From Candidatus Gottesmanbacteria bacterium (GTDB lineage: Bacteria > Patescibacteriota > Microgenomatia > JAMCYU01), in the NCBI GenBank assembly GCA_043801155.1, contig JAZDMI010000021.1:2683-66682 (forward strand): a stretch of DNA of 64,000 bases. Reading direction: 5' to 3'. The translations under genes were made by a program, and so were the position numbers. The notes below the pieces were generated by a model. The model did not search any database. It was not told where the DNA came from and saw only the letters and a program-made list of their open reading frames with translations. Shown here in pieces: positions 1,428-57,904 of this stretch (position 1 is the first letter of the stretch; the number at the start of each line of letters is the position of its first letter).

Positions 1428-3701
1428 ATGGTTAGTCTTGCCCAAACCATAAATGAAATTAAGTCATTAAAAATTCAGGGTGCCACCAATGTTGCCCGTT
1501 CGGCGATCAGTATTTTAAGTGATGTTCCCCAGATTAGATTAAATGAGACAATTGACGAACTAATTTCTACCCGGCCAACCGAGCCATTGCTGCAAAACTG
1601 TCTTAATTTAGTTAAATTAAAAGGAAAAATTGTTATTCCATTGATTTTAGCAAGACTTGATAATATTGAGGATGAAATTGTTAAAAATGGTGCGTCTCTT
1701 ATTAAAAATGGTGACATAATTTTAACCCATTGTCATTCTTCATCGGTGGTTAAACTTTTTAAATATACCAAGAAAAAAGGAGTTGATTTTAAGGTTTATC
1801 TAACGGAAACCCGGCCGGTTTTCCAGGGAAGGATTACTGCCGGGGAATTAACTGAAGCCGGAATAAATTCAACCATGATTACTGATTCCGAGGCTTCCTT
1901 TGTAATCAGCAAAGAGGATAACCTGGATATTAACACAGTTTTTCTCGGAGCCGATGCCATCGACAAGAATGGATCAATATATAATAAAGTCGGCAGCTAT
2001 GGCATAGCTCTTTCAGCCTCAAAGGCCAATATACCTATATATATAGTATCCACCCTGCTTAAATTCTCGGTTAAACCGGTAATTATTGAAGAAAGAAAAG
2101 GCAAGGAAGTTTGGTCAAATAAGCCTAAAAATCTCAAAATATTTAATCCGGCTTTTGATAAAGTTCCGGCGGAATTAATCACCGGATTGGTTAGTGAATT
2201 TGGCATTATTAAACCCAAAAAAGTAAAATTCATGGTTAAAAAAAATTACCCTTGGATATTAACGGGTGAGACGCTGAGGTCGCCCATTAGCGATTTTTTC
2301 GGTACAAAACCTGCGAGGAGTCGTCCCGACTCTGTCGGGACTCCTTTCGTTCCTCAAAAATCGAACGGGCTCCCCGCGTCTCACGAAAAAAATTCGTTCT
2401 CCCCTTATAAGTCCTATTCGGCGCTTCAAGATTCCCGAGCTTACAGCGAGGGTGAATTGAAGCAACGAAAAACACCTTACAGGTGTTATCTTCATCTTAA
2501 TGAAAAAGTTAACCTTAAAAATCACATTATGGCTGATTTTATTTTAACAGTTAATAAGGATGAGGATTTTTTGGAGGTTGCCGGCGGAATTGCCACCGAG
2601 TCTTCAATCGGCACCTGGACGCAAGTGACCACCCAATTAAAAAGCGTTTGGGAAAAACTTCATGCTAGGGTGCTTAAGGCAGATAAAAACAGCGGGTCTT
2701 TGCAGATTGCCTATCCGTTGGATCTTTTTGAAAAAGGGAATATTCCCCAATTATTGTCATCGATAGCCGGTAATGTCTATGGACTGAAGGAAGCTTCTTG
2801 TCTTAGATTGGATGATATTAACTTGCCCGAAAATTATGTTAAAACTTTTCCCGGGCCAGCTTTTGGCATCGATGGGATAAGAAAAATTACCGGTGTTTAC
2901 GGCCGGCCGTTAATTGGTTGTATCATTAAACCCAAATTGGGGCTGGACTGCGAAAAGCATTCAAAAATAGCCAAAGAAGTTTATGAGGGGGGAATTGATT
3001 TCGTCAAGGATGATGAAAACTTAACCTCTCAAGAATTTAATCCGTTTGAGAAAAGAGTTTCATTGATTATGAAATATTTAATTGACTCGCATCAATTAAA
3101 TAAAATATATGCTTTTAACGTAACCGCACCATCAGACAGAATGTTAAAAAGAGCTAATTTTATTAAAACCCATGGCGGAAATTGTGCGATGATTGATTTT
3201 TTAACGGCTGGTTTTTCCGGATTGCAGTCACTCCGTAGCGCTAATCTGGGTTTAATTATTCATGGCCATCGAGCTATGCATGCAGCTCTGGATAGAATAC
3301 CAAACCATGGCATATCAATGCTGGTCTTGGCAAAATTAGGAAGATTAGCAGGGTTGGATTCTTTGCATAGCGGAACAGTAATTGGTAAGATGGAAGGTGG
3401 AGAAAAAGAAATAATAAATATCAATAAATTTTTATTAGGCAGTTGGTATGGATTAAAACCGGTTTTACCGGTAGCCTCCGGAGGTTTGTATCCCGGATTA
3501 ATACCTGACTTAATCAAGATTTTAGGTAAGGATATTCTTTTAAATTTTGGCGGAGGGATTCACGGACATCCGCAAGGCTCAAAAATGGGTGCCATAGCAG
3601 TATTGGCGGCGGTTAAGGCTTATCAAAAAGGGATATCATTTTCAGAAAGTGCCAAAACCAATAAAGCCCTGGCAGTAGCTTTAGAGAAATGGCCAATATG
3701 A
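1428..3701 (+). CDS. single uninterrupted ORF: ribose-1,5-bisphosphate isomerase (e2b2/eIF-2B-like) domain (about 1428-2262) joined in frame, through a 65-aa linker encoded by a GC-rich palindromic element, to a form III-like RuBisCO large subunit (RuBisCO homology from about 2457; first ATG 2529; to 3701)
   Basis: The e2b2 part ends with NPAFDKVPAELITGLVSEFGIIKP, as the family does. The RuBisCO part carries ESSIGTWT, the catalytic KPKLG, GIDFVKDDENLTSQ, HGHRAMHAA and GGGIHGHP motifs. The ORF track shows no stop codon between the two. Confidence 0.6.
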   Translation: MVSLAQTINEIKSLKIQGATNVARSAISILSDVPQIRLNETIDELISTRPTEPLLQNCLNLVKLKGKIVIPLILARLDNIEDEIVKNGASLIKNGDIILTHCHSSSVVKLFKYTKKKGVDFKVYLTETRPVFQGRITAGELTEAGINSTMITDSEASFVISKEDNLDINTVFLGADAIDKNGSIYNKVGSYGIALSASKANIPIYIVSTLLKFSVKPVIIEERKGKEVWSNKPKNLKIFNPAFDKVPAELITGLVSEFGIIKPKKVKFMVKKNYPWILTGETLRSPISDFFGTKPARSRPDSVGTPFVPQKSNGLPASHEKNSFSPYKSYSALQDSRAYSEGELKQRKTPYRCYLHLNEKVNLKNHIMADFILTVNKDEDFLEVAGGIATESSIGTWTQVTTQLKSVWEKLHARVLKADKNSGSLQIAYPLDLFEKGNIPQLLSSIAGNVYGLKEASCLRLDDINLPENYVKTFPGPAFGIDGIRKITGVYGRPLIGCIIKPKLGLDCEKHSKIAKEVYEGGIDFVKDDENLTSQEFNPFEKRVSLIMKYLIDSHQLNKIYAFNVTAPSDRMLKRANFIKTHGGNCAMIDFLTAGFSGLQSLRSANLGLIIHGHRAMHAALDRIPNHGISMLVLAKLGRLAGLDSLHSGTVIGKMEGGEKEIININKFLLGSWYGLKPVLPVASGGLYPGLIPDLIKILGKDILLNFGGGIHGHPQGSKMGAIAVLAAVKAYQKGISFSESAKTNKALAVALEKWPI
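2266..2384 (+). repeat. GC-rich structured element: 9-bp terminal inverted repeats GTGAGACGC...GCGTCTCAC enclosing an imperfect 16-bp hairpin (GAGGAGTCGTCCCGAC-TCT-GTCGGGACTCCT). GC-rich sequence continues to about 2470 with a further small hairpin (ACACCT-TAC-AGGTGT) near 2474-2490
   Basis: Read directly; GC content is far above the surroundings; all three overlapping frames (one + and two -) are open here, as expected when AT-rich stop codons are depleted. Confidence 0.6.
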
Positions 3702-4957
3702 AAAAAACTAATAAAACAATAGCTATTCAGGCAATCAGGGATAAATTAGTTGGTAAAAGACTTTCCTATCAGGAAATATTTGCCCTGATGGATGAAATTG
3801 CTAATCATAAACTGGGCCCGGTTTTAACAACTTATTTTGCTGCGGCTGGATTTAAAGAAGGTTTTTCCAATCCCGAACTGTTTTTTCTTACCAAAGCGAT
3901 GGCCGAAACCGGCGAAAAACTTCATTTTAAGGGAATTGTAGCCGATAAACACTCCACCGGGGGAATTGCCGGAACCAGGACAACGATGATTTTGGTGCCG
4001 ATTATCGCTTCTGCCGGTATAAAGATTCCTAAAAATTCTTCTCGGGCAATCACTACTCCTTCCGGAACAGCCGATACGATGGAGGTCTTAGCTCCGGTAA
4101 CTTTTATGCCACGACAAATTGAGCAAATAGTTTATAAAACTGGCGGTTGTATTGTTTGGGGAGGTCATTTAGGGCTTGCTCCGGCCGATGATATTATTAT
4201 TCAGATTGAGGAACCGTTAGCTTTTGAGTCTTTTGATAAAATTATTATTTCGGTTATGGCTAAAAAAGTTGCTTCGGGAGCCAATCATGTTATTATTGAT
4301 ATTCCAGTTGGGCCGACCGTTAAAATAAAACATTTTACCGATGCTGAACTTATTGCTAAAAAAATTACCTTTTTAGGCAAGCAGTTCAAAATAAAAATTG
4401 TGACCGATATCAACCAAATACTTGAACCGGCCGGCCGGGGAGTTGGTCCGTCACTTGAGGCCAGAGATGTCTTAAGAGTCCTTGAACAATTACCAGATAG
4501 GCCGCTCGCATTAGAAAGAAAAGCCTTAAAATTATCTGGCCGGCTTTTAGATCTTTGTTTTGCTGATATGAAAGGGAAAAAGGTTGGTACTGGTGAAGAA
4601 GTCGCTGATCAGATTCTTAAATCGGGTAAGGCCCTAGACAAAATGAGAGAAATTATAAAAATTCAGGGCGGTAATTCCAATATCTCATCAAGCAGGATAA
4701 AACTAGGTAAATTCAAAGAAGAAATAAAAAGTACCAGGAAAGGAAGAATTATAAGTTTGGATAATCATCAGATGACAGTTATCTGTAAAATCTTAGGCGC
4801 CCCGGCAGATAAAGAAGCAGGTATTTTTTTGGGTAGGCGGGTTGACGAAAAAGTAGACAAGGATGATATACTATTTATTATGTATTCTTCCGACAAATGG
4901 AGATTAAAAGAGGCGCAGGAAACATTAAAAAATTTACCAATATTCAAGATTGAATAA
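3689..4957 (+). CDS. deoA: AMP phosphorylase / thymidine phosphorylase family (DeoA-like)
   Basis: Pyrimidine-nucleoside phosphorylase family motifs (HSTGGIAG, TTPSGTADTMEVLAP, GGCIVWGG). Overlaps the RuBisCO stop by 13 nt, completing the e2b2-RuBisCO-AMPpase pathway set. Confidence 0.75.
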   Translation: MANMKKTNKTIAIQAIRDKLVGKRLSYQEIFALMDEIANHKLGPVLTTYFAAAGFKEGFSNPELFFLTKAMAETGEKLHFKGIVADKHSTGGIAGTRTTMILVPIIASAGIKIPKNSSRAITTPSGTADTMEVLAPVTFMPRQIEQIVYKTGGCIVWGGHLGLAPADDIIIQIEEPLAFESFDKIIISVMAKKVASGANHVIIDIPVGPTVKIKHFTDAELIAKKITFLGKQFKIKIVTDINQILEPAGRGVGPSLEARDVLRVLEQLPDRPLALERKALKLSGRLLDLCFADMKGKKVGTGEEVADQILKSGKALDKMREIIKIQGGNSNISSSRIKLGKFKEEIKSTRKGRIISLDNHQMTVICKILGAPADKEAGIFLGRRVDEKVDKDDILFIMYSSDKWRLKEAQETLKNLPIFKIE

Positions 4958-15476: not shown

Positions 15477-16567
15477 TGAAAAGATTTTTTTATACATCCA
15501 TTTTTATCCTTATCTGTTTCGATATGCTGATTATTTTTTATTTGATAAGTATTCAACCTAAAGAAAATCAAAAGAAAATAGTTCCATTACAGGTCAATCT
15601 AAAAAAATCTTTAGAAGTAGATATTACTAATAAAAGTATTAACGTTAGTGATATCTTTAAATATCAAGATCCTGATTTTTCAGGTTATAATCCCAATGAA
15701 ATTGTGCTTTTAGCTACCGGTGATGTAATTCTAGCCAGAAGTGTCAATAGCTTAATGGTTTCGAAAAATAATTTTCTTTATCCATTTGAGAAGACCGCTA
15801 ATTTTTTAAAAAATTCTGACATAACTTTTATAAATCTGGAATCGCCCCTAATTCCCAATTGTGCAACCACAGTCGAAGGTATGGTTTTTTGTGGTAGTGA
15901 GAATGCCGTTGCAGGATTAGTTTTTAGTGGCGTTGACGTAGTCAGCATTGCTAATAACCATATGGCTGATCAAGGAGAGGATGGGATAAATAATACAACT
16001 AATATCCTGATGAAAAATAATATTGCCGTAACTGGTAACGGCAATCCGGCAATCTTAACGGCCAAAGGAAAAAAATTTGGATTTTTAGGGTACAACGATA
16101 TCAGTGAAAGATATGACTTATTGCCTAAGCCAGACGATATTCTTTTACAAAAAGATATTTATAAATTAAAACAAAAAGTGAACTATGTGATTGTTGCTTT
16201 TCATTGGGGGGTTGAATATACAGCCAGTCCTTCAGCCAGACAAGTCGAATTAGCCCATATGGCCATTGATAACGGTGCTGATTTGGTCATCGGTAATCAT
16301 CCTCACTGGGTGCAGGGAATTGAACAATACGAAGGGAAATTAATAACCTATGCCCATGGTAATTTTGTTTTTGACCAAATGTGGTCGCCAGAAACCAGGG
16401 AAGGCGTAATCGGTAAATATGTTTTTGGTAACAATGGTTTAAAGTCTGTTAATTTTTACCCAATCATTATTGAAAATTATGCTCAGCCAAGATTTGCCCA
16501 AAAAGAAGAAGCCGTCAAGATCTTGGAAAAAATGAAAGCCACATCGCCCATAGTCAAATCTCCCTAA
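15477..16567 (+). CDS. CapA/PgsA-family metallophosphatase-like membrane protein (poly-gamma-glutamate/capsule synthesis family)
   Basis: HWGVEY...GNHPHWVQG...HGNFVFDQ motifs. The ORF-track start at 15341 overlaps the pilin gene; ATG near 15477 is preferred. Confidence 0.65.
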
Positions 16568-16586
16568 CTTTGTTACACTTAACTGT

Positions 16587-19028
16587 GTGTATAAAGGACT
16601 TTCAGAAAACGAAACAGCTATTTTAAAAAGTAAATTTGGCGAGAATTCTCTTCCGGCAAAAGAGGCCACCAGTCCGTTAACTATTTTTATCTCTCAATTT
16701 AAAAGCCCACTAATTTATATCCTTTTAATTGTTGCCTTAATTTCTTTTCTATTTGCTCAATACTTTGATAGTCTGTTAATTTTTGCCGTGATATTGATTA
16801 ATGTTCTGATGAGTTTTTTCCAGGAATATAATGCCCAAAAAACCTTAGCCGCTCTTCAACAGGTCCTTAAACCTGAAGTCTTAGTAATAAGAGATGGCCT
16901 AAGAAAGCGTATTGAAGCAAAGTATCTATTACCCGGTGATTTAGTTGTTTTGGGAGCTGGTGATCGGATTCCGGCTGATGGGAAGCTGATTGAAGGGACC
17001 AGTTTCTTGGTTAACGAGGCAATTCTAACAGGAGAAGAAGAAGGAGTTAATAAGACAATCGAGGACAAGAGAAATTTACTTTTTATGGGAACAAGTATTC
17101 TTTTTGGTCAGGGAATTATGGAAGTCATAACGATCGGACAAACTACTCAAGTTGGAAAAATAGGTCAAAGTCTAACCGAGATTAAAGAAGAACCAACACC
17201 TCTTCAGAGACGACTAACACAATTTTCCAAATCTCTGGCTAAAGTTATCCTTGGTTTGTGTTTCTTTATTTTAATTATCGGAGTATTAAGTGGAAAAGAT
17301 TTCTGGATGATGCTTAAAACCTCGATTATATTATCGGTGGCCGCCATTCCCGAAGGATTACCGGTGGCGATTACCGTTATTTTGGTATTAGGCATGAGAA
17401 AAATACTAAAAAAACAGGGATTGGTTAAAAAGTTGCTGTCAATCGAAACTTTAGGTTCAACCTCAGTGATTTGCACTGATAAAACCGGGACACTGACCGA
17501 AGGAAAAATGAAGGTGGTTGAAACCGATTTTGTCGATCAGACCAAAGGAGTTTTAGCTTTAATGTTGGCCAATTATCAAAGGACTAATATCGAAATTGCT
17601 TTTTGGGATCATGCCCAAAGTAAAAAACATTTACTTCCCGCAGAAATTTTAACGTCGTTGACTAAGACATACGAGGAACCTTTTGATAGTGAAAAAAAAT
17701 ATACTCTGGTAATAAATAAAATGGCTGATAAAGAAACAGCCTTTATGGTAGGGGCAGCAGAAATTGTCCTAAATTTTTGCCGGCAAGACTCTTCTTCAAC
17801 AAAAAAAATTATCGCCATGATTGAGGATTGGGCTGACCGCGGATTAAAAGTTGTCGGATTGGCTTTTAAAGAAGACGGTAATTTGAAGGAAAAAAATAAT
17901 TTTTCTTGGCTGGGGCTTGTTGGTATTGAGGATCCCCTCCGGCAGGAAGCAAAAGAAGCGATTATCACAGCCCAAAAGGCCGGAATAAAAATAAAAATCG
18001 TTACCGGCGACTTACGGAAAACGGCTGAAAGAATCGCTAAAAATTTAGATTTACAGTTTTCCCCTGATCAAATTTTAGAAGGCAAGGAATTGGAAACGCT
18101 TACAGATTTAGAAATTAATAAAAGGATTAATAATATCGTTTTGTTTACCCGGGTTACTCCTCATCAAAAGTTAAAGATTGTCGAAATTTTACAGGCACGG
18201 GGTGAAGTGGTGGCGATGACCGGCGATGGGGTTAATGATGCGCCGGCTCTTAAAAAGGCCGATATCGGCGTTGTTGTCGGTACCGGATCGGATGTGGCGA
18301 AAGAAGCCGGAGATCTGATACTTCTGGATAATAATTTTAAAACAATCGTCTCTGCTTGTGAGGAAGGCAGATTGATTATTGCTAATCTGAAAAAAGTTAT
18401 CGGCTATGTTTTATCCAATTCGTTTTCCGAGATTATCTTAATTTTTGGGGCTATTATTACTCAACTACCAACACCATTAACCGTGGTTCAAATTCTTTGG
18501 ATTCATCTTATCTGTGACGGACCGCCGGACATTCTTTTGAGTTTTGAACCAAAAGAAAATGGCTTGATGTTACAAAAACCCAAAGACTTGAAAAACGATA
18601 TTATTCTTAGCCGAACAATGAAAGTGTTGATATTAACCGTCAGTTTGATATCCGGTTTAGGTTCACTGCTTGTTTTCAAATATTTTCTGCAAACCGGAAA
18701 TAATTTAACTATAGCCAGAACGATGATTTTTACCTTTTTATCTTTGGTCAGTCTGGTTTACATTTTTTCCTTTAAAAACCTGCATAAATCAGTTATTAAA
18801 ACTGAGAATTTTTTTGCGAATAAATACCTATTTTTGGGGGTATTGTATGGATTAATCCTAATTTTAGCAGCCGTTTATTTACCCTTTTTTAATCTGATAT
18901 TAGGAACAACTCCTCTTAATATTAAACAATGGTTATTAATCATCAGCCTTAGCTTGGCTATAACCGTAACCATTGAACTATTTAAATTGACCAATATTTT
19001 TCAAGAAAAAATAACCAGGACGGGTTAG
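16587..19028 (+). CDS. cation-transporting P-type ATPase (P2-type, Ca2+/Mg2+-like)
   Basis: DKTGTLT phosphorylation site, TGDGVNDAPAL hinge, ten predicted TM segments; GTG start. Confidence 0.9.
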   Translation: MYKGLSENETAILKSKFGENSLPAKEATSPLTIFISQFKSPLIYILLIVALISFLFAQYFDSLLIFAVILINVLMSFFQEYNAQKTLAALQQVLKPEVLVIRDGLRKRIEAKYLLPGDLVVLGAGDRIPADGKLIEGTSFLVNEAILTGEEEGVNKTIEDKRNLLFMGTSILFGQGIMEVITIGQTTQVGKIGQSLTEIKEEPTPLQRRLTQFSKSLAKVILGLCFFILIIGVLSGKDFWMMLKTSIILSVAAIPEGLPVAITVILVLGMRKILKKQGLVKKLLSIETLGSTSVICTDKTGTLTEGKMKVVETDFVDQTKGVLALMLANYQRTNIEIAFWDHAQSKKHLLPAEILTSLTKTYEEPFDSEKKYTLVINKMADKETAFMVGAAEIVLNFCRQDSSSTKKIIAMIEDWADRGLKVVGLAFKEDGNLKEKNNFSWLGLVGIEDPLRQEAKEAIITAQKAGIKIKIVTGDLRKTAERIAKNLDLQFSPDQILEGKELETLTDLEINKRINNIVLFTRVTPHQKLKIVEILQARGEVVAMTGDGVNDAPALKKADIGVVVGTGSDVAKEAGDLILLDNNFKTIVSACEEGRLIIANLKKVIGYVLSNSFSEIILIFGAIITQLPTPLTVVQILWIHLICDGPPDILLSFEPKENGLMLQKPKDLKNDIILSRTMKVLILTVSLISGLGSLLVFKYFLQTGNNLTIARTMIFTFLSLVSLVYIFSFKNLHKSVIKTENFFANKYLFLGVLYGLILILAAVYLPFFNLILGTTPLNIKQWLLIISLSLAITVTIELFKLTNIFQEKITRTG

Positions 19029-21277: not shown

Positions 21278-21354
21278 CCTTTAAAGGAAGATATTTAAAA
21301 TGCTTCAATTCATCCGCGCAATGAATTGCACGGTATTCTTGAAGCATTATATAA

Positions 21355-57341: not shown

Positions 57342-57416
57342 AAGTGAACTTTGATATGGAGGTGATTTCACCGACAAAAAGTTAGAATAGCGGACTGGCA
57401 CAACGTATTTAGTCTA

Positions 57417-57438
57417 GGTGCAGTCGGCACCTTTTTTT
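57417..57438 (+). promoter_or_regulatory. leader hairpin GGTGC-AGTCG-GCACC plus T7 (terminator-like) between promoter and rplC start, with an alternative pairing GTGATTTCA (approx 57362) / TGAAATCAC (approx 57444): putative attenuator
   Basis: Stems read directly. Confidence 0.4.
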
Positions 57439-57466
57439 GTGCCTGAAATCACTTAAACTAAAAAAT

Positions 57467-57904
57467 ATGACAATTGTATTTAAGGGTAAAAAAATTAGTC
57501 AGGGTGAAAAGTTTACCGATGAAGGCTGGCGGATTCCCGTCACCAGCATTCAACTGGATAAAGATACCAATTTGACCGAAGGTCTTCAGGTTGGCGACAA
57601 GGTTAAAGTAAGCGGTACTTCCCGGGGTAAAGGCTTTGCGGGTGTTGTTAAGCGGTGGAAATTTGCCGGGGGGCCGAAAACCCACGGTCAATCAGATCGG
57701 GAGCGTGCTCCTGGTTCAATTGGACAAACAACCACACCGGGCCGGGTATATAAAGGTAAACGAATGGCTGGCCGAATGGGTGGAGATAAAGTAACAATTT
57801 CCGGTTTGAAAGTTGTTGAAATTAAATCAGAAGAAAAAATATTAATTGTTAAAGGTTTAATTCCGGGTCCGATCAAAGGTTTAGTTAAAATAAGTAAACC
57901 ATAA
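57467..57904 (+). CDS. rplC: 50S ribosomal protein L3 (shortened form)
   Basis: SGTSRGKGFAGVVKRWKF...GSIGQTTTPGRVYKGKRMAGRMG conserved core; ATG at 57467 preferred over the TTG at 57437. Confidence 0.85.
   Translation: MTIVFKGKKISQGEKFTDEGWRIPVTSIQLDKDTNLTEGLQVGDKVKVSGTSRGKGFAGVVKRWKFAGGPKTHGQSDRERAPGSIGQTTTPGRVYKGKRMAGRMGGDKVTISGLKVVEIKSEEKILIVKGLIPGPIKGLVKISKP

Follow-up and report, generated by a model that had tools for sequence, protein, structure and literature searches.

The window analysed here, a 64,000-nucleotide (nt) stretch of Candidatus Gottesmanbacteria contig JAZDMI010000021.1, carries a gene in which an e2b2 ribose-1,5-bisphosphate isomerase and a form III RuBisCO large subunit are joined through a long, GC-rich linker, and this linker contains a 120-nt imperfect palindrome (element A, Table 1) that recurs in unrelated genes. 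As originally predicted, no stop codon separates the two enzymes, which form a single frame in the list of open reading frames (ORFs), and the 757-amino-acid (aa) product has exactly the sequence of NCBI MFH0863968.1, which comes from a Candidatus Gottesmanbacteria metagenome-assembled genome (MAG). Pfam recognizes IF-2B (aa 37-263), which is here the domain of the e2b2 ribose-1,5-bisphosphate isomerase family, followed by RuBisCO_large_N (364-470) and RuBisCO_large (480-755). In the family alignment, the last conserved e2b2 motif is KKNYPWI (nt 2238-2258) and the first conserved RuBisCO motif is PYRCYLHL (from nt 2475, aa 349-350), and the alignment to the Thermococcus kodakarensis RuBisCO likewise starts at aa 349. 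Invariant columns of the RuBisCO half include K501, K503, K527-D528-D529-E530, H614, R615, H647, K654, S684 and G709-G710, which we take to be the equivalents of active-site residues K175, K177, K201, D203, E204, H294, R295, H327, K334, S379 and G403/404, and the HCHSS and GxDA motifs of the e2b2 half hardly vary. AlphaFold2, run with the family alignment, modeled both domains confidently (predicted local distance difference test, pLDDT, mostly 82-98) and gave pLDDT <50 for residues 282-347 (nt 2271-2468). Judged from these alignments and models, there is hardly any doubt that the gene encodes a true fused, bifunctional e2b2 isomerase-RuBisCO protein.

Among 5.8 billion proteins searched for homologues, ~48 combine these three Pfam domains at a length of 690-757 aa, and all of those with a taxonomic label belong to the Candidate Phyla Radiation (CPR)/Patescibacteria, several of them to Gottesmanbacteria. 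Unfused form III RuBisCOs (~416-455 aa, P0049-P0120) rank below the fused proteins in the match list, and include the nearest named relative, P0057 (57% identity), labeled at its source as “RuBisCO long chain, Form III-c.” The gene probably belongs to the CPR fusion type in which Form III-c RuBisCO is fused to the isomerase, alongside Form III-c genomes with separate, adjacent e2b2 and RuBisCO genes (Jaffe et al., 2019 Mol Biol Evol, PMC6389311). The fusion as such, considered unusual at the outset, is thus already in the literature and nothing new. Our gene resembles these published fusions in its domain order within one ORF, in having deoA next to it and in lying in a Gottesmanbacteria-type genome, but differs from them in a linker that is ~55 aa longer and built of inserted repeats; the word “linker” does not occur in the text of PMC6389311. 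Separately, P0049 (454 aa), annotated as unfused, begins with MVKKNYPWI, i.e., the e2b2 C-terminal motif, which probably points to a fusion gene broken up by a frameshift, by a mis-called start or by a contig break.

Most fused homologues have only 10-20 aa from KKNYPWI to PYKSYLHL. Long linkers (53-71 aa) were found in the window protein, P0002, P0003, P0004 and P0010, and that of the window protein exceeds the family norm by ~55 aa. When the linker columns were left out, neighbour joining placed the window protein and P0002 as sisters joined by P0004, and this group, together with the adjacent P0003, is nested among short-linker sequences, with deeper branches (down to 45% identity) also fused through short linkers. 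This nesting indicates that the fusion predates the long linker, and that the repeat entered a linker that already existed.

Anatomy and copies of element A

The connector is GC-rich as first described (0.54-0.575 across 2249-2441, compared with a mean of 0.372 for the window; sd 0.063 in 120-nt windows), but 17 other islands of the window reach a GC of at least 0.52, so that composition alone is not distinctive. It folds far better than its shuffled versions, as the folding check suggested with the original prediction confirmed: z-scores were -4.17 as RNA and -3.91 as DNA for 2262-2388 and -4.25 for 2400-2492, with 0/200 shuffles folding as well in either segment. The 9-bp terminal repeats, the internal hairpin and a second small hairpin (about 2471-2487) are all present where they were first placed. 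A lone 9-bp inverted repeat within 300 nt has no significance by itself, and that of the connector comes from these fold scores and from homologous copies elsewhere. Other parts of the early description needed correction: a single forward frame is open across element A rather than three, the other two being reverse-strand ORFs over the connector (2259-2525 and 2287-2475), and the linker, predicted to be disordered as proposed, is 72 rather than 65 aa long. Peptides encoded in the linker region (2260-2480) include SPISDFFGTKPAR and PDSVGTPFVPQK.

Searches of general databases returned little. Rfam gave no match in the whole window at gathering scores, and only two chance-level matches (E = 5-9), both outside the element, when 2150-2650 was searched up to E = 10; phmmer, run with the 72-aa linker on 1.84 billion representative proteins, returned only a spurious match to a repetitive protein. 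Two kinds of known element were considered and discarded, namely hammerhead, twister and similar ribozymes (for the CUGA/GGGC motifs), ruled out by the Rfam result and the plain long-hairpin architecture, and inteins, ruled out by the small size of the insert (40 aa) and its lack of a Pfam match.

The extent of element A was set by a glycosyltransferase, P0122, whose sole tblastn match in the window is 2265-2384 (80% identity over exactly 40 aa, E = 8.6e-17), and the covariance model built for the family (R1) scores 97 bits on the window copy. An alignment of five full copies shows invariant arms around a variable centre, with an arms consensus of GC-TGAGGTCGCCC..AGCRATTTTT / AAAAATYG..GGGCTCCCC-GC. 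The consensus hairpin consists, from the outside inward, of an outer stem, an internal loop UGAGGU / CUCCCC, a GCCCGCC/GGCGGGC stem, a CRAUUUUU/AAAAAUYG stem, and a centre that differs between the three subfamilies (the window copy with P0122; L001, L041 and L048; L032 with L038). In the window, this centre is a GC-rich hairpin with a perfect core (GTCCCGAC, 2323-2330 / GTCGGGAC, 2334-2341), and the peptide centre that it encodes is also present in P0122. Together with the following TCCTTTCGTT (2323-2350), it passes a loose intrinsic-terminator scan, though its location is within an ORF and the other subfamilies do not conserve it. The core (subterminal) arms are 82-100% identical among copies, and 91% of cells pair across the 27-pair consensus helix, with double changes in 7/27 pairs (slid controls, 35-56%). 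The outermost 4-7 bp, on the other hand, vary between copies yet remain complementary (window, GTGAGAC-GC / GC-GTCTCAC; L001, GGGC-GC / GC-GCCC; L041, GAGTC-GC / GC-GACTT; L048, GCGC-GC / GC-GCGC).

Within e2b2-RuBisCO linkers, full copies occur in the window and in L001 (encoding P0002), and the 5' arm only in L003 (encoding P0004): all three share the motif CTGAGGTCGNCCNNNAGCNATTT, as well as GCTGAGGTCGNCCNNNAGCNATTTTT in their linker DNA, and the window and L001 also have CGGGCTCCCCGCG in common near the other end. The other copies lie in unrelated contexts, i.e., in frame within a PMT-family membrane glycosyltransferase (L041/P0121, ...VGRVAEVARQQFLSKSNRSLKEE...EKIGRAPRDLL...), within a ComF protein (L048/P0123) and within a membrane protein running off its contig (L032), as well as, in L038, at the end of a contig just downstream of efp. 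P0122 (MFH0864375.1) carries its copy in frame just before the C-terminal Rossmann domain of a GT1 glycosyltransferase, an interdomain site as in the fusion protein. This protein and MFH0863968.1 are 407 accession numbers apart and have the same organism label, on different contigs, hence P0122 very probably comes from the same MAG as the window protein. When metagenome contigs were scanned with the 5' motif, 3/30 matches were true (L032, L038 and L041) and the other 27 were chance; scans of viral contigs gave no matches.

Two further segments were noted beside these copies. Residues ~153-167 of P0122 form an odd stretch, AAQRPARNATHGVAGG, which may be another repeat-derived insert. In L023 (1323-1385, minus strand), a YchF-like GTPase includes ..GSEVARQQFGSAP.., matched by the covariance model at E = 7e-4, and this segment could represent either a copy of element A that was shortened or has decayed, or a chance match.

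Conservation of element A is at the nucleotide level and follows subfamily rather than locus. The RuBisCO-linker copy of L001 is identical at 50/50 positions to the L041 copy, which sits in another gene from another metagenome, as compared with 86% to the orthologous window copy, and the differences among L001, L041 and L048 affect codon positions 1, 2 and 3 evenly, with no third-position bias. The same motif is translated as TLRSPISDFF in the window protein and as AEVARQQFL in its sister P0002, i.e., in different frames. What we observe is thus not the protein-level conservation with synonymous drift that, in the original prediction, would have marked the linker as part of a simple old fusion. 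The TGA of CTGAGG is always present in one forward frame, and the frame used by the host gene is the sole stop-free forward frame in 5/5 full copies, with two different frames used by the various hosts. This exclusive use, together with a length of exactly 40 codons, is as expected if the element is translated rather than removed, and is unexpected for an intron or an excised RNA.

Table 1. Features of the fusion gene, its linker repeats and related sites (window positions unless a contig is named)
Feature	Position	Strand	Remarks
Fusion ORF	1428..3701	+	ORF list; Pfam; e2b2 isomerase + form III(-c-like) RuBisCO large subunit, 757 aa
e2b2 / IF-2B-like isomerase domain	1428..2258	+	Pfam; family alignment; AlphaFold2 pLDDT mostly 82-98
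Interdomain linker, 72 aa	2259..2474	+	residues 282-347 predicted disordered
Element A, imperfect-palindrome repeat	2265..2384	+	120 nt / 40 codons; translated as GETLRSPISDFFGTKPARSRPDSVGTPFVPQKSNGLPASH
Outer stem, 5' half GTGAGACGC	2266..2274	+	copy-specific sequence, complementarity kept
Conserved 5' arm CTGAGGTCGCCCATTAGCGATTTTTT	2274..2299	+	holds the TGA closing one forward frame
GC-rich central hairpin	2323..2341	+	specific to the window subfamily; terminator-like, then TCCTTTCGTT
Conserved 3' arm CAAAAATCGAACGGGCTCCCCGCG	2355..2378	+	pairs with the 5' arm
Outer stem, 3' half GCGTCTCAC	2376..2384	+	9-bp inverted-repeat partner of GTGAGACGC
Upstream motif copy CCTTATAAGTCCTAT	2403..2417	+	PYKSY, cut off from LHLNEK
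Element B, 57-nt hairpin segment	2418..2474	+	arms 2417-2429 / 2457-2469 (GCTTCAA...TTGAAGC)
Downstream motif copy CCTTACAGGTGTTAT	2475..2489	+	PYRCY, continuous with the RuBisCO domain
RuBisCO large-subunit domain	2475..3698	+	invariant alignment columns; PDB matches with E down to 1e-105; pLDDT ~90
deoA-like AMP phosphorylase	3689..4957	+	Pfam Glycos_trans_3N, Glycos_transf_3, PYNP_C; overlaps the end of the fusion gene
Element B, second copy	21302..21345	-	fusA-tuf intergenic spacer, opposite orientation
Third palindrome type	L002 1292-1480; L003 5830-5966		translated VIAR...PRNDG or VVIST...ARNDK

Further repeats and neighbouring genes

The long linker also contains a second hairpin segment, element B, flanked by two versions of the motif that opens the RuBisCO domain (2403-2417 and 2475-2489), which match at 11/15 nt and form a direct repeat around it. 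Once element A is taken out, the window protein reads ..PWILT|EKNSFSPYKSY|SALQDSRAYSEGELKQRKT|PYRCYLHLNEK, as compared with a family consensus of ..sPYKSYLHLgEK. The second copy of element B in the window was matched by BLAST at 78% over 45 nt (E = 0.015; ~34/44 core positions identical), and the arm pattern was observed 2 times against 0.03 expected. That fusA-tuf spacer contains an imperfect palindrome (21296-21351) with 27-nt arms, the core of which is ~77% identical to 2423-2463. Element B can be read as a second small repeat whose insertion would have duplicated ~15 nt of its target, a length accommodated by the target duplications of 3-26 bp of the Yersinia YPAL repeat (PMC2229807).

The ComF site gives a similar picture. 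In the ComF alignment, the same loop is filled by different inserts in many Microgenomates homologues, and is too variable and too often occupied by other repeats to set the boundaries of element A. Four of these ComF proteins (P0127, P0125, P0133 and P0135) have the same peptide as the RuBisCO linker of P0003, ..EFFH..HSTQ..AVSV.LSKIVTRRP. At the DNA level, this second family is represented by L005 993-1142 (the P0003 linker) and L049 463-609 (ComF, P0127), both from sample SRR22388041, which differ by compensatory changes (GTCAC/GTGAC vs. GTGAC/GTCAC; CTCCAC/GTGGAG vs. CCCCAC/GTGGGG) and share one architecture, with an inner stem, ACGAATTTTTTCAC ... GTCAAAAATTGT, resembling the one in element A. 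In P0010 and P0004, the RuBisCO linkers contain a third palindrome type, the ends of which are GTCATTNCGA / TCGNAATGAC. On these comparisons, at least two or three hairpin-repeat families appear to have become inserted, in different lineages, at this one pair of permissive sites. To us it is finely balanced whether Microgenomates/Gottesmanbacteria carry an undescribed superfamily of protein-coding palindromic repeats, with at least 2-3 families repeatedly colonising the e2b2-RuBisCO linker and the ComF loop; in the architecture proposed as common to them, a variable centre would be enclosed by an inner (C/G)RATTTTT / AAAAATYG stem and, outside this, by a GC-rich stem. It is tempting to speculate, from the complementary but copy-specific outer stems, that such hairpins could be extended and maintained by hairpin-templated (quasi-palindrome) mutation instead of a transposase.

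Elsewhere in the window, an intergenic inverted repeat at 57362-57452 (GTGATTTCACCGACAAAAA / TTTTTGTGCCTGAAATCAC, 84% complementary, with no Rfam match) lies just upstream of a ribosomal-protein-L3-like ORF (57437-57904) and may be a leader structure.

Next to the fusion gene, the deoA-like gene is the third member of an adenosine monophosphate (AMP)-salvage trio with the fused e2b2 and RuBisCO. Independent assemblies (L001 and L003) have these genes in the same order as the window (sortase, ruvX, fusion gene, deoA, small ORF, yceG), which argues against an assembly artefact. In the syntenic region of L001, a LAGLIDADG/HNH-like ORF (16453-17739) was seen between the yceG neighbourhood and rpoB.

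Origin of the long linker

Taken together, these observations make it likely, in our judgement, that the connector is selfish, or at least repeated, palindromic DNA inserted in a pre-existing flexible linker, translated as a disordered peptide and tolerated by the enzyme. A short interdomain linker would already have been present in the fused gene when the GC-rich hairpin repeats described here, elements A and B, landed in it and produced the long linker. The copies that survive would be those that keep the frame, bring in no stop and lie where the structure permits an insert, for example in a linker between domains or a surface loop, and the family of element A would be one of Gottesmanbacteria and related Microgenomates.

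Several points weigh against this interpretation. The expected marks of a mobile element are few: none of the five copies inspected has a visible target-site duplication around element A, no conserved terminal sequence was identified among the copies, and no partner transposase or matching insertion sequence turned up (whole genomes were not covered), so that mobility is read from distribution alone. The copy number also looks low. The recurrence check proposed with the original prediction found copies in unrelated genes, but no further element A in the 64-kb window, by BLAST of 2240-2540 or by R1 with filters off. A 5'-motif scan of 185,579 representative genomes (the window's MAG and the genome of L001 not among them) gave 12 matches, all chance and with no similarity beyond the motif, and a six-frame peptide query found only three proteins, adding P0122 and P0123; this query missed P0001 and P0002 themselves and is insensitive for short segments, which makes its count a weak bound. 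The copy in P0122 is known as protein only, and its same-MAG origin rests on neighbouring accession numbers. Since the window protein, P0002 and P0004 form one clade, their linker copies could stem from one insertion, and the frame difference between the window protein and P0002 could reflect later compensating indels. Finally, we only infer that the insert is translated and that its effect on the enzyme is neutral or nearly so.

Among the alternatives, a functional structured RNA comes closest, though we consider it unlikely: the connector would act as a processing site, a ribosome-pausing hairpin or a partial terminator setting the ratio of isomerase-only to full-length product, with its coding capacity incidental. 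The very stable fold (z ~ -4) and the compensatory stem changes would fit such a role, as would the terminator-like hairpin with its T-rich tail (2323-2341) and a position exactly between the domains, suited to co-translational folding or pausing. However, covariation is equally expected of a DNA palindrome, the centre with its terminator-like hairpin is not conserved between subfamilies, and no Rfam family matches even at E = 10. A role in the RuBisCO operon would make no sense for the same element in glycosyltransferases, ComF and a membrane protein, and most fused homologues do without it. The related suggestion of a structured or self-excising RNA lying between two cistrons is disfavoured as well, there being no two cistrons here and the host frame being the sole open one throughout.

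It is very improbable that the insertion made the fusion, i.e., that a MITE-like sequence (for miniature inverted-repeat transposable element) replaced the stop and spacer between separate e2b2 and rbcL genes. The element does sit exactly at the junction, and both the separate, adjacent genes of some Form III-c genomes (PMC6389311) and the unfused RuBisCOs P0049-P0120 could speak for it, but element-free fusions with 10-20-aa linkers occur family-wide and bracket the long-linker clade, and the window protein keeps short-linker remnants (..EKNSFSPYKSY) around its inserts. Hence, of the first reading offered for this locus, the real fused enzyme and the inserted repeat stand, whereas the erased stop is not supported.

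We give just as little credence to the linker being an old lineage-specific peptide under protein-level selection for docking or spacing, with the similar peptides elsewhere being convergent low-complexity sequence. The window protein, P0002 and P0004 are mutually closest and all have long linkers, and a longer tether might help halves that form different oligomers. Yet the use of a shared DNA motif in different frames by the window protein and P0002 largely refutes this view, and neither the lack of third-position bias nor the predicted disorder supports it; among 1.84 billion representative proteins nothing real resembles the linker, and the match to P0122 ends exactly at the hairpin ends.

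Least credible of all is a junction created by misassembly or binning, or by a recent pseudogenising insertion as the original prediction also considered, which would leave the 757-aa frame meaningless: the source is indeed a MAG, and repeats are classic misassembly places, but independent assemblies from other samples (L001, L003 and L004) have the same gene order with an element at the same junction, and the frame is open through both inserts, with conserved catalytic positions and two confidently folded domains.

Significance and relation to known repeats

No report of such repeats in CPR bacteria was found in full-text searches, which is not proof of absence, and the inserted palindromic element, though of a known kind, is apparently an undescribed and modestly interesting case. 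The possible novelty lies in ultra-small CPR genomes that, like those of Rickettsia, put up with hairpin repeats in essential or metabolic genes and apparently spread them; if true, this would provide a second reduced-genome lineage with protein-coding palindromes, and a comparison of why they are permitted. For annotation, it means that repeat DNA, and not functional peptide, may be what lies behind long “disordered linkers” and odd insertions of CPR proteins. For enzymology, removing residues ~280-349 would be worth considering in a recombinant fused RuBisCO, and the repeats provide natural tags for positions at which the structure of these enzymes is permissive.

Among bacterial MITEs, ERIC/IRU, the 107-bp Correia element and YPAL/RU-2 all have intragenic in-frame copies that can be co-translated with their host ORFs (Delihas, 2008, PMC2229807). 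Element A is, like them, a small non-coding repeat with terminal inverted repeats, and YPAL is also not AT-rich, but it has no TA termini and no visible target-site duplication, and its copies are mostly intragenic instead of intergenic. Repetitive extragenic palindromic (REP) sequences and bacterial interspersed mosaic elements (BIMEs), mobilised by REP-associated tyrosine transposases (RAYTs), form hairpins that are GC-rich relative to the genome and have covarying stems; REPs are ~20-40 nt long, extragenic, often clustered, and have a conserved GTAG-type head. Element A shares with REP/BIME the hairpin, the relative GC-richness and the covarying stems, but is 120 nt long, solitary and intragenic.

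The closest parallel is with the Rickettsia palindromic elements (RPEs; Ogata et al., 2000 Science, 2002 Genome Res), which are described, in PMC2229807 and PMC10969869, as stem-loops of 105-150 bp inserted in frame in conserved genes, with 44 copies in R. conorii. This likeness is one of behaviour rather than membership, homology being unlikely across phyla. Element A belongs to a different phylum (CPR/Microgenomates), is GC-rich in an AT-rich genome, and appears low in copy number (2 for the window's genome, if P0122 belongs to it, against 44 in R. conorii); moreover, the CPR repeats recur at the same two sites (RuBisCO linker and ComF loop) in different lineages, and their outermost stem differs between copies. 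In common with RPEs, nevertheless, they have their size, a long stem-loop closed by the ends, in-frame insertion in unrelated conserved genes, several families per lineage, and neither a clear target-site duplication nor a transposase.

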